33,477 nucleotides of DNA from Pseudomonadota bacterium (GTDB lineage: Bacteria; Bdellovibrionota; FAC87; UBA2466), in the NCBI GenBank assembly GCA_043718025.1, contig JAYSWN010000083.1, forward strand, positions 1 to 33,477, read 5' to 3'. Shown here in pieces: positions 5,299-8,200 of the stretch. The translations under genes were made by a program, and so were the position numbers. The notes under the pieces were generated by a model, which saw only the letters and a list, made by a program, of their open reading frames with translations, was not told the origin of the DNA and did no database searches. Numbering within the stretch: the first letter of the stretch is position 1; every line of letters begins with the position of its first letter.

Positions 5299-8200
5299 AT
5301 GTTTGTTCGTTTTTTAAATCTGTTGCCGCTGCTCCCCCTGGTGATGTCGATCGCCGAAGGCGCCTCTCCGAGTTGTGCGCAAAGACTGTTGCACGCCACG
5401 CATGGGGTGGATGCCGATCAAGCCGCTCGAACCCTTAGCGAGAGCCCCCTTTTTGCAAGACTGTCTGCGGACCAGCGGACCTTTATGGAGGAGCTTTTTC
5501 TCCCCGTAGTGGGCGAGCGCGGCAACCATTTCCCGATGCGAGTGGGAAAGGGCTGGCTGGAGTGGAAAGGCTACCCGCATTCTCCCCTGAAATACCGGGT
5601 GGAGTTTTCTGCCGATGTGGACGAACCGCAGCTCGATTTAACTGACCCGGCTTGCCGCCGTCTTATCTTACCCCAAGCTGCGACCACCGGCGATTGGACT
5701 GGAATCCTCAAACGTTTTTTTCTCGGCCATCCGCTCCATCCCTTTATGGTCGACCCGAACAATCGGGTGGAGCGGGAAGAGCTGGGAGAGCCCAGTCTGC
5801 TGCTACGCGATGTGCAGGTAGAGGCGGCCGAAGTGGGTCGCGAATATTTGAAGCGCTTCCATGATGGCGATATGACCCACCAGCGTTTTCTTTACGTCGC
5901 CCCCACCGGCACCGGAAAGTCAGAAATCTACCTCAACCTGCTTTCCACTCGCCTCACGCAGATTGGCGATAATGGCCTCATCATCGTTTCGTCCGATCGC
6001 GCCAATGTCGTACGCGATCGAATGGATGAGGCCAAGACGCTCCAGCAGAACGGCCATGATTTTGACATTGTTCACTGGGGCGGAAGCGGTGAACTTAACG
6101 ACGATGTCCATTCGGTTGAGGAGTTACTGGCGCGCGTCGCCCTTGCCAAGCGGCCGGTGGTATTGATTACCACTTCGGCGTCGCTGCGACTTTCTTACTT
6201 TGAAGCAGATCGCGTCACCCAAAAAGCTCTTCGTAAGAATCTGCGCGGCGTCTTTGTTGACGAAGCCCACCACCTTGGGGGGCTTACCAATAGCGACATT
6301 TTAGCTAAGCTAATCAATAGAAACCGCCTAGCTTCTCTAATCGGCTTCACCGCTACCCCCGTGAGTCGTACCCAATCGATCCAAAATCTGTTCAATGCCC
6401 ACGGTTTTTGGGCCTACGAAGACAACGCCGAAGATTATTTAAAAAATCCAGGAGCCTTCTACAGGGATGTCGCACTGGTCGCGCAACAACTCCGCCGCGC
6501 CTTCATAGCGGGAGATTTAGTGGGGTTCGATAAGGTAAATTATATTCCGCTCAGCAATGCGACTAAGGGAGACCTGTACGTAAAAAGGAAAAAAATGGTC
6601 GAGGGTGGAACGTTTGAAGACGTTAATCGGTTTGTGCTCAATTCAGAGTACTATCCCGAATTGCTGGCCGCTCTAAACCCCATCTTCCTAAGCGGGCGCG
6701 GTATTATGGTGGCAAACGATATTACCGAGGCAGAAGACCTCACGGCCGCCATCAACCTCATCTATCAGAGTCAGAAAAAAAACGTCCGCGCCGAAGTGAT
6801 CACCTCAAAAAATGCACCGGCCAACTCAAAAACCGAAAGGGATATTCTTGCCCGCTTCCGGTCCGGCGAAACTCAAATTTTAGTATCGGTAAATAAACTC
6901 GATGAAGGGATCAATATTCATGACGCAAATTTTTACATCGACTTGAACCTTTCGCCTTCCGCCCGCAGCTTTTTGCAACGTTTGGGTCGTACCACGCGCG
7001 TGTCTCCCGCAAAAACGGAGAGCCATGTCTACCTGTTAGCACCACACAGCCAGGAGACACTTGAAAAAATGCTTCACGAAGTCTTCTTTGCTCCCGGCCA
7101 GCGACGTCCCAAACCAGCTCCCACCGGAACGTCCCACGGCAATCTAGAAGTTGCCATGGAGGACTTCTTAGACGCACTCGAGAGGACCAACCTGGAACGC
7201 TTGGATTTTTGGAAGCCAAGTCGCTACTCGCTTTCCGCGGAAGAACTCACCCTCTTTCAGCAAGAGGTTATTGGAGATGTGGGTGAAACCTTTCCTCGAT
7301 TCGGAAGCAAGACCAACGCGTTTATTGAGACGGTGTTGGCGCCGAAAATTTCTAATCTTGCCGCGCGCACTGCCTTTCTGAAAGAGGTTAAAGATTTACA
7401 CATATGGGATTCTCTGATTTGGAGTGCTCAGTCTGTTCTTGGATCCGCGGATAAGCTTCATCAAGTTTTTATCCTCTTTGCCACCGCCGCCAATTTCGAG
7501 GTTCCCGAACGTATGGTTACGCGGTCCCATTTAGAGCAATGGGGCGTAATACCAAGTAGGTATTCTATCCCTGAATCCGAACTCAAGCTGTTTCAGACCG
7601 AAGTTCTGACGTCTTCGGTGGAGGCTCTTTCTGGGGTTAGGCGCAAAACAAATAAGTTTATCGAAGAGGTATTGGCCCCCAAAATTTCTAATCCAAAGAA
7701 GCGCGCCGATTTTCTAAGAGAAATGAAACAATTAAATTTATCCAACGCCACCATAAGATCGGGGGAAACTCATCTTGGATCGGCCGACAATTTCCATCAC
7801 GTGCTGGTCCGTTTCGCCGAAGCCGCGGGTCACGAAGTGCCCGAACGGGTCAAGCTGTCTGATTTAGAGGCGTGGGGGGTGGTAGCCAGTAAGTATTCTC
7901 TTGCCGACGCCGAAATAAAGTTATTTCAAGCGGAAGTTCTGTTCGATGTGGCGCTTACCTTTCGAAATTATGGAGGTAAGGCCAACGCTTTTGTGCAGAC
8001 CGAATTGGCGCCGAAGATTGCTAACCGCAGCAAACGAGCCGCGTTTCTAAAGTACGCGAAAGACTTAAATATGTCGGAGACCACCATTAGAATGGGAAGC
8101 GACATGCCCGGCCCGGCGGATTGTTTTCACCAAGTTCTGCTCCGCTTCGCCGAAGCCGCAGGTCACGAGGTGCCGAAACGGGTTACCTTGTCTGACCTAG

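Follow-up and report, generated by a model that had tools for sequence, protein, structure and literature searches.

A helicase family with a predicted signal peptide and a shared cysteine tag suggest candidate prey-directed enzymes in the Bdellovibrionota

Studied members of the Bdellovibrionota are predators. In Bdellovibrio bacteriovorus, predator proteins are secreted into prey, with evidence that secreted proteins by themselves kill prey (PMC11003981), and the passage of such proteins through the prey inner membrane and the cause of prey death are both presented as open questions in recent papers (PMC12428579, PMC11003981). The described proteins of this phylum that most resemble the one considered here are signal-peptide enzymes, including the Sec-exported nucleases Bd1244, Bd1934 and Bd3507 and the secretome of empty bdelloplasts, which are considered to work on prey, its DNA included (PMC2797640, PMC12546842, PMC11003981). 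A helicase that Bacteriovorax marinus also has, Bd1370, is reported to be up-regulated during predation, and the available text does not report it as exported. Outside the phylum, polymorphic and host-targeted Sec/T2SS toxins also combine a signal peptide with a variable C-terminus, and prey-directed versions lack an immunity gene (PMC3239186, PMC12419801). Among solved motors, the restriction enzyme SauUSI joins a PLD nuclease, an SF2 motor and a target recognition domain and translocates on DNA (PMC7913695).

Here, we analyze P0001, the product of a gene in a window of 33,477 nt (the whole stretch of DNA examined, contig JAYSWN010000083.1 of assembly GCA_043718025.1) from an uncultured organism whose predatory lifestyle is inferred from its lineage and whose genome measures 4.14 Mb (52% GC, 92% complete). 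From its N-terminus, the protein comprises a signal-peptide-like leader, a C-x3-L helix, a family-specific domain of ~130 residues, a ResIII-type SF2 motor, a linker and five repeats (Table 1). The original prediction had described an apparent export signal preceding an intact helicase core. Both elements stand, with the quoted leader peptide (MFVRFLNLLPLLPLVMSIAEG-ASPSCAQRLL) translated from the ATG at 5299 and no disruption in any of motifs I, II, III, V and VI, but the leader does not abut the motor, from which ~140 residues separate it, and the five C-terminal repeats had gone unmentioned.

Two RecA-like domains and a Q motif, together with the motifs just named, place P0001 in the SF2 DExH ResIII-like class, and residues 22–642 were modeled confidently (pLDDT 89, pTM 0.89). 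The motif residues G206, K207, D321, E322, H324, T353, R561, R564 and R567 are 87–100% conserved across the family alignment, so ATP turnover is likely under selection, and P0001 would therefore be expected to meet ATP and nucleic acid after export. Judged by its motifs, P0001 is a catalytically intact SF2 motor. Its N-terminal domain has zero sequence matches in the PDB, and no nuclease domain was found among its Pfam hits.

The best PDB profile hits of the helicase family were SauUSI (7CLG, E 5e-30), RadD (4e-21) and XPB (5e-20). P0001 shares with SauUSI an SF2 DExH motor carrying the same canonical motifs and followed by a C-terminal accessory region; however, where SauUSI has its N-terminal PLD nuclease, P0001 has a signal peptide, a Cys tag and a new alpha/beta domain, and where the SauUSI tail recognizes its target, the P0001 tail is a tandem helical repeat. 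Assignment as a SauUSI-type type IV restriction enzyme was rejected, since P0001 has no PLD hit and no methyl-DNA target recognition domain (a PLD nuclease was absent both from its own Pfam hits and from the 25 commonest families in 39 homologs), as was assignment as a type I/III restriction-modification motor, since no methyltransferase or specificity gene is linked to it, either by Pfam in the window or as a neighbor common to distant loci. Escherichia coli RadD (YejH) and archaeal XPB, both among the top Foldseek hits, have a ResIII-type motor like that of P0001 but are cytoplasmic repair enzymes without a leader; a separate leaderless RadD-like gene, assigned by resemblance, lies on C58 of the same genome. 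Foldseek ranks RNA and DNA helicases alike for the P0001 motor, and on our analysis its substrate is probably DNA rather than RNA. P0001 also differs from the exported B. bacteriovorus enzymes cited above, which are hydrolases with no need for ATP, and from the polymorphic toxins, in that here the enzyme stays constant and what varies is the tail, a repeat array with no detected catalytic domain.

The ATG at 5299 obtained the top score (281.6) among the 12 starts listed by a dicodon model trained on the genome, above an in-frame upstream TTG at 5245 (274.2). It has no Shine-Dalgarno match, as is the case for 2371 of the 3765 called genes of the genome. Two runs each yielded one contig of 3705 nt that is identical to the window over 5209–8913, though these runs are possibly the source of the window itself. 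The leader has a single basic residue, R4, a hydrophobic core at approximately residues 5–18 (9-residue Kyte-Doolittle mean up to 2.4) and an A19-E20-G21 sequence compatible with a signal peptidase I (SPase I) site, so that the basic n-region, hydrophobic h-region and small-x-small site of a Sec/SPase I signal peptide are all present by a heuristic reading; two prolines make it somewhat atypical. The CAQRLL helix that follows occupies residues 3–14 of the structure model at a pLDDT of ~50.

Conservation across the family argues strongly for the export signal. A search of 1.84 billion representatives (E ≤ 0.001) returned 317 hits, and the best 150 of these yielded 149 proteins that reach 150 bits and carry a DExH motif. 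In 121 of them, P0001 included, the N-terminus is full-length, and 28 were set aside for N-terminus length (25 shorter, 3 longer). By our own loose heuristic, which is not SignalP and whose strict setting is still passed by 778 of the 3765 genes of the genome, 105 of the 121 full-length members among these best 150 of 317 matches have a signal-like N-terminus at ~21–49% identity, 93 of them within the first 20 residues and 12 more within 45. Among outgroup helicases only 3 of 38 pass, each from an internal methionine inside the motor core. A Cys follows the h-region in 96 of the 105 signal-like members, in the form C-x3-[LFIMV] in 76 and C-x3-[LF] in 59, and the Cys column is filled by Cys in 76% of the 113 rows of the family alignment. 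A second, distant subfamily (P0169–P0183) shows leader and Cys, by eye, in most of its 15 rows. It includes the only other leader-bearing protein among the 13 SF2 hits of the genome itself (10 show no leader on visual inspection, and 1 is truncated where its contig stops), a helicase with a CRALL tag and about four helical repeats of 140–150 residues. Most homologs thus keep the N-terminal segment and do not start downstream of it, in agreement with the export signal originally proposed, and we consider Sec export of P0001 with SPase I cleavage near residue 21 very probable.

Table 1. Positions of P0001, its parts and other predicted leader-bearing proteins; entries not marked as window positions within or beside P0001 carry our own C and L labels.
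Feature	Position	Strand	Basis or remark
P0001, exported SF2 (ResIII-type DExH) helicase/translocase gene, 1197 aa	5299..8892	+	export predicted
Predicted Sec/SPase I signal peptide, residues 1-21	5299..5361	+	hydropathy; cleavage after A-E-G inferred
C-x3-L tag CAQRLL, Cys26, candidate sorting signal	5374..5391	+	begins low-confidence helix in model
Family-specific alpha/beta N-terminal domain, ending in conserved LxGHxLHPY	5410..5793	+	alignment, model
SF2 motor core	5800..7068	+	Pfam ResIII/DEAD/Helicase_C over cut-off, motifs, model
Q motif, Q173	within 5800..7068	+	
Motif I / Walker A APTGTGKS, residue 201	5899-5922	+	
Motif II DEAH, residue 321	6259-6270	+	
Motif III TAT, residue 351	6349-6357	+	
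Motif V DEGIN, residue 535	6895-6915	+	
Motif VI QRLGRTTR, residue 560	6976-6999	+	
Five tandem 111-112-aa all-helical repeats, probable target-binding tail	7219..8889	+	mutual identity 47-60%
Unrelated protein, same leader and C-x3-L (SNDCPNLL)	window 751..2070	+	no Pfam hit
Unrelated protein, same leader and C-x3-L (EQCGTQLR)	window 2191..3717	+	no Pfam hit
Second predicted-exported SF2 helicase, subfamily P0169-P0183	C38:3628-7206 = L077:2812-6390	+	profile match 99.4%
ClpB-like double-AAA protein, leader and C-x3-F/L replacing N-domain	C29:21538-23643 = L074:16764-18869	+	
Pyruvate kinase paralog, leader and C-x3-L	C225:12104-13720 = L126:3105-4721	-	30% identical to housekeeping copy on C46
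Methyltransferases (two), leader and C-x3-L	L070:488-1594, L084:8160-9092		
GNAT protein, leader and C-x3-L	L098:4101-4787		
NUDIX protein, leader and C-x3-L	L095:1528-2574		
ATP-grasp protein, leader and C-x3-L	L101:101-1630		
M3 peptidase, leader and C-x3-L	L125:2668-4767		
Dehydratase, leader and C-x3-L	L088:4101-5057		
Further leader-bearing Clp-like ATPases	C35 (L076:5416-7758), C36:1451-6115, C232:17703-20303		at least two without Cys tag

The tails of the family vary widely, with 38 similarity groups among 115 tails and tandem repeats in 79 of 116. The P0001 repeats gave zero Pfam hits in the local library, and a two-repeat model, all-helical at a pLDDT of 91, found no structural match in PDB, BFVD or Atlas, and none there to a known DNA-binding fold; their charge is near neutral, which counts against a DNA-binding tail. 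Matches to INT_rpt, HNH_repeat and sigma-70 regions 2 and 4 in a few family tails suggest nucleic-acid binding. Of P0166, P0016, P0120 and P0138, one is a family member with sigma-70 region 2 and region 4 domains at its C-terminus, and the other three entries consist only of the 111-aa repeat of P0001 and may be fragments or stand-alone arrays.

A scan of a genome collection found at least 54 loci, at least 13 of them in the helicase family; 12 of the 13 listed carriers are titled as Bdellovibrionota lineages, and the remaining one, a fragment of 402 residues, comes from a bin with the title Flavobacteriales. Occurrence is patchy, with the family in 11 of 41 relatives, in 0 of 3 genomes of the same genus and in 24 of 401 genomes of the phylum, the last possibly an undercount. 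No conserved neighbor is common to distant loci, and the gene stands alone; patchy occurrence and a lone gene fit the habit of effectors. Elsewhere in the window, leader-bearing proteins at 14347-15054 and 17148-18017 contain short repeated helical motifs (L..RIAALE..LG) and have no credible Pfam hit, and a repetitive surface protein of 2093 residues at 22510-28791 (- strand), built of beta-rich repeats of ~100 residues with a C-terminal DUF5122 propeller, is a probable adhesin. At 11565-14089 (- strand), a DUF4423/TIGR02147 regulator gene adjoins a lipoprotein with three internal repeats; DUF4423/TIGR02147 genes are abundant in the Bdellovibrionota, and together with the lineages of the family carriers this gene makes the Bdellovibrionota the probable phylum of the genome analyzed here.

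The leader and Cys tag extend well beyond helicases. Among the called genes, 98 encode proteins of 150 residues or more that combine a leader-like start with C-x3-L/F, and of the 79 scanned against Pfam 33 had a hit and 46 had none; for comparison, the same stretches supplied 58 leader-only controls (30 with Pfam hits). After 7 tagged and 3 control false leaders were dropped by eye, and with enzyme classes that are our own and post hoc, cytoplasm-type enzymes made up 10 of 26 Pfam-annotated tagged proteins vs 1 of 27 controls (Fisher p = 0.002, or p = 0.03 if two borderline controls are counted as cytoplasm-type); the other controls in this comparison were mostly classic envelope proteins. These ten are a double-AAA ClpB, the second helicase, two SAM methyltransferases, a GNAT protein, a NUDIX protein, an ATP-grasp protein, a pyruvate kinase, an M3 oligopeptidase and a polyketide-type dehydratase, with separate leaderless copies in the genome for the ClpB, pyruvate kinase, M3 and ATP-grasp proteins. 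The tagged ClpB has both Walker A and B motifs intact, a leaderless ClpA gene is also present in the genome, and an ortholog of the tagged form in genome G002 (L128:1363-3498) retains both the leader and C-x3-L, its spacer being different and longer. One control protein with a leader, L086:17-802 (- strand), has a toxin-like Gln_deamidase_2 domain (PF18626). Other tagged proteins carry LRR, WD40 or HEAT repeats (L100:101-1558, L121:4945-6330, L075:3203-5998, L108:3709-5493), eukaryote-like modules that would be compatible with a eukaryotic host or prey. The largest tagged protein, at C222:1850-6223 (- strand; L123:1850-6223), has 1458 residues, a weak P-loop-like pattern and no Pfam hit.

Leu or Phe stands at +4 of a Cys just behind leaders in 82 of 328 cases (25%) vs 192 of 1545 further downstream (p = 4e-8), but non-exported proteins have it at similar positions in 129 of 674 (19%), so the excess behind leaders is only modest. 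The tag test on flanking genes of other genomes gave 1/18 vs 0/20, and the leader-bearing Clp-like ATPases on C35 and C36 lack the Cys tag. That ATP-, SAM- and acetyl-CoA-dependent enzymes share one leader and Cys tag fits delivery into another cell, where a tagged pyruvate kinase could regenerate or drain nucleotides.

We propose that P0001 would be exported by Sec and cut by SPase I near residue 21, after which the Cys-x3-Leu/Phe helix behind the cut would tag the protein for sorting in a second step, through the outer membrane, a role that we hold possible, though slightly short of an even call. Two-step machinery is encoded (5 secretin and 10 T2SSE-family matches), and since no type III, VI or IV marker (FHIPEP, VipB, TrbI) was found in this 92% complete genome, the second step would most plausibly use a type II or Tad-type secretin system. 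The five secretins and the lack of a FlhA/FHIPEP match are also features suggesting a non-flagellated, pilus-rich organism. P0001 would then reach a compartment with ATP and nucleic acid, a destination we regard as reasonably likely, the prey cytoplasm being the foremost candidate. There, its exchangeable tail would bind DNA and the motor would translocate in the manner of SauUSI, stripping proteins off the prey chromosome, stalling transcription or replication, or opening the DNA to separately secreted nucleases; it would thus disable or open the chromosome uncut, on DNA chosen by the tail. We give even weight to the reading that Sec exports P0001 and that the motor, once inside a prey or host cell, moves along that cell's DNA with that cell's ATP. 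We know of no mechanism by which a 130-kDa protein moves from a secretin into a bacterial cytoplasm, which counts against prey delivery, as does the lack of an FlhA match. More tentatively, a Sec leader with a Cys-x3-Leu/Phe helix may mark dozens of proteins per genome for the cytoplasm of living prey, with the helicase family as a DNA-motor effector aimed by exchangeable repeat tails; the cargo of this proposed and undescribed Bdellovibrionota effector pathway would include many duplicated cytoplasmic enzymes (helicases, ClpB, pyruvate kinase, methyltransferases, acetyltransferases).

The most serious competing account is that P0001 is exported and acts outside any cytoplasm, in the predator periplasm, at its surface or in the lumen of permeabilised dead prey, where, running on leaked ATP that an exported pyruvate kinase might regenerate, it would strip prey nucleic acid or thread it toward digestion and uptake. 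This would require nothing beyond Sec and general secretion, and secreted nucleases that degrade prey DNA have been described (PMC2797640, PMC12546842). The tag is not specific: ordinary periplasm-type hydrolases also have it, and its carriers include S41 proteases, DUF2817 proteins and a VWA protein. The tagged pyruvate kinase exists alongside a housekeeping copy. The predator periplasm, however, is not expected to supply ATP and DNA, and the set of ATP-, SAM- and acetyl-CoA-dependent enzymes would require cofactors outside a living cell. The tagged pyruvate kinase has no relatives at the strict cut-off used, and patchy distribution and fast-changing tails fit conflict more than nutrition. 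On balance, we consider an extracytoplasmic role unlikely, if well short of negligible.

A more doubtful alternative concerns the leader itself, which might be an uncleaved inner-membrane anchor, or its Cys a non-canonical lipidation site, so that the motor is tethered and acts on the cell's own or incoming DNA. The near-universal N-terminal Cys does recall lipoproteins, and residues 16–175 contain a single Cys in 42 of 135 members, which therefore have no disulfide partner in that segment. Nevertheless, a lipobox ([LVI][ASTVI][GAS]C) directly follows the h-region in 0 of 105 signal-like members, leaving the family without the SPase II signature of lipoproteins, and the Cys lies at a variable 9–47 residues from the h-region start, preceded by polar c-regions that contain small-x-small sites. 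By the positive-inside rule, a short h-region with a basic n-region in front of it is predicted to leave the C-terminus outside, and the genome already has a leaderless RadD-like helicase and other housekeeping helicases. Tethering is improbable on these grounds. Tat export is not indicated either, with a twin-arginine motif in 0 of 135 family members.

Less probable still is a defense or competition protein derived from restriction-type motors, whose target would be phage or other foreign DNA, met in the envelope or inside rival cells rather than in prey. SauUSI, the closest solved relative, is a restriction enzyme, there are partial PADLOC hits to the motor regions of PbeA and type IV REase, and occurrence is patchy, but these hits span only ~85–100 motor residues, a nuclease domain is missing, no methylase, immunity or defense gene is a conserved neighbor, and the tag is common to non-defense enzymes. 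Finally, we judge it very unlikely that the leader is a chance or mis-called extension of an ordinary cytoplasmic helicase, for although 5299 has no Shine-Dalgarno sequence, the heuristic is permissive, 16 of the 121 full-length members fail it and 28 others were set aside for N-terminus length, leader and Cys are retained in both subfamilies at ~21–60% identity, several of the 16 failures are apparent late start calls with the Cys motif still visible, and in three close orthologs of P0001 the leader ATG is invariant while the codons just upstream diverge.

Within the literature searched, which took in a minority of subscription journals, no signal-peptide helicase family or Cys-x3-Leu tag is described in the Bdellovibrionota. 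As the export signal is common to most relatives and the catalytic motifs are intact, Bdellovibrio-like bacteria likely send this motor out; judging from sequence, the motor and other cysteine-tagged, normally intracellular enzymes likely leave their own cell and probably enter prey. Behind the helicase family there may thus stand a larger and apparently undescribed class of Cys-tagged exported enzymes. Since an ATP-dependent motor can work only where there is ATP, one that carries an export signal is a built-in probe for cytoplasmic delivery. Because the shared Cys tag provides a concrete, mutable candidate sorting signal together with a candidate cargo list, the delivery question becomes testable with reporter fusions, and a nuclease-free DNA motor serving as an effector would represent a new type of antibacterial activity.
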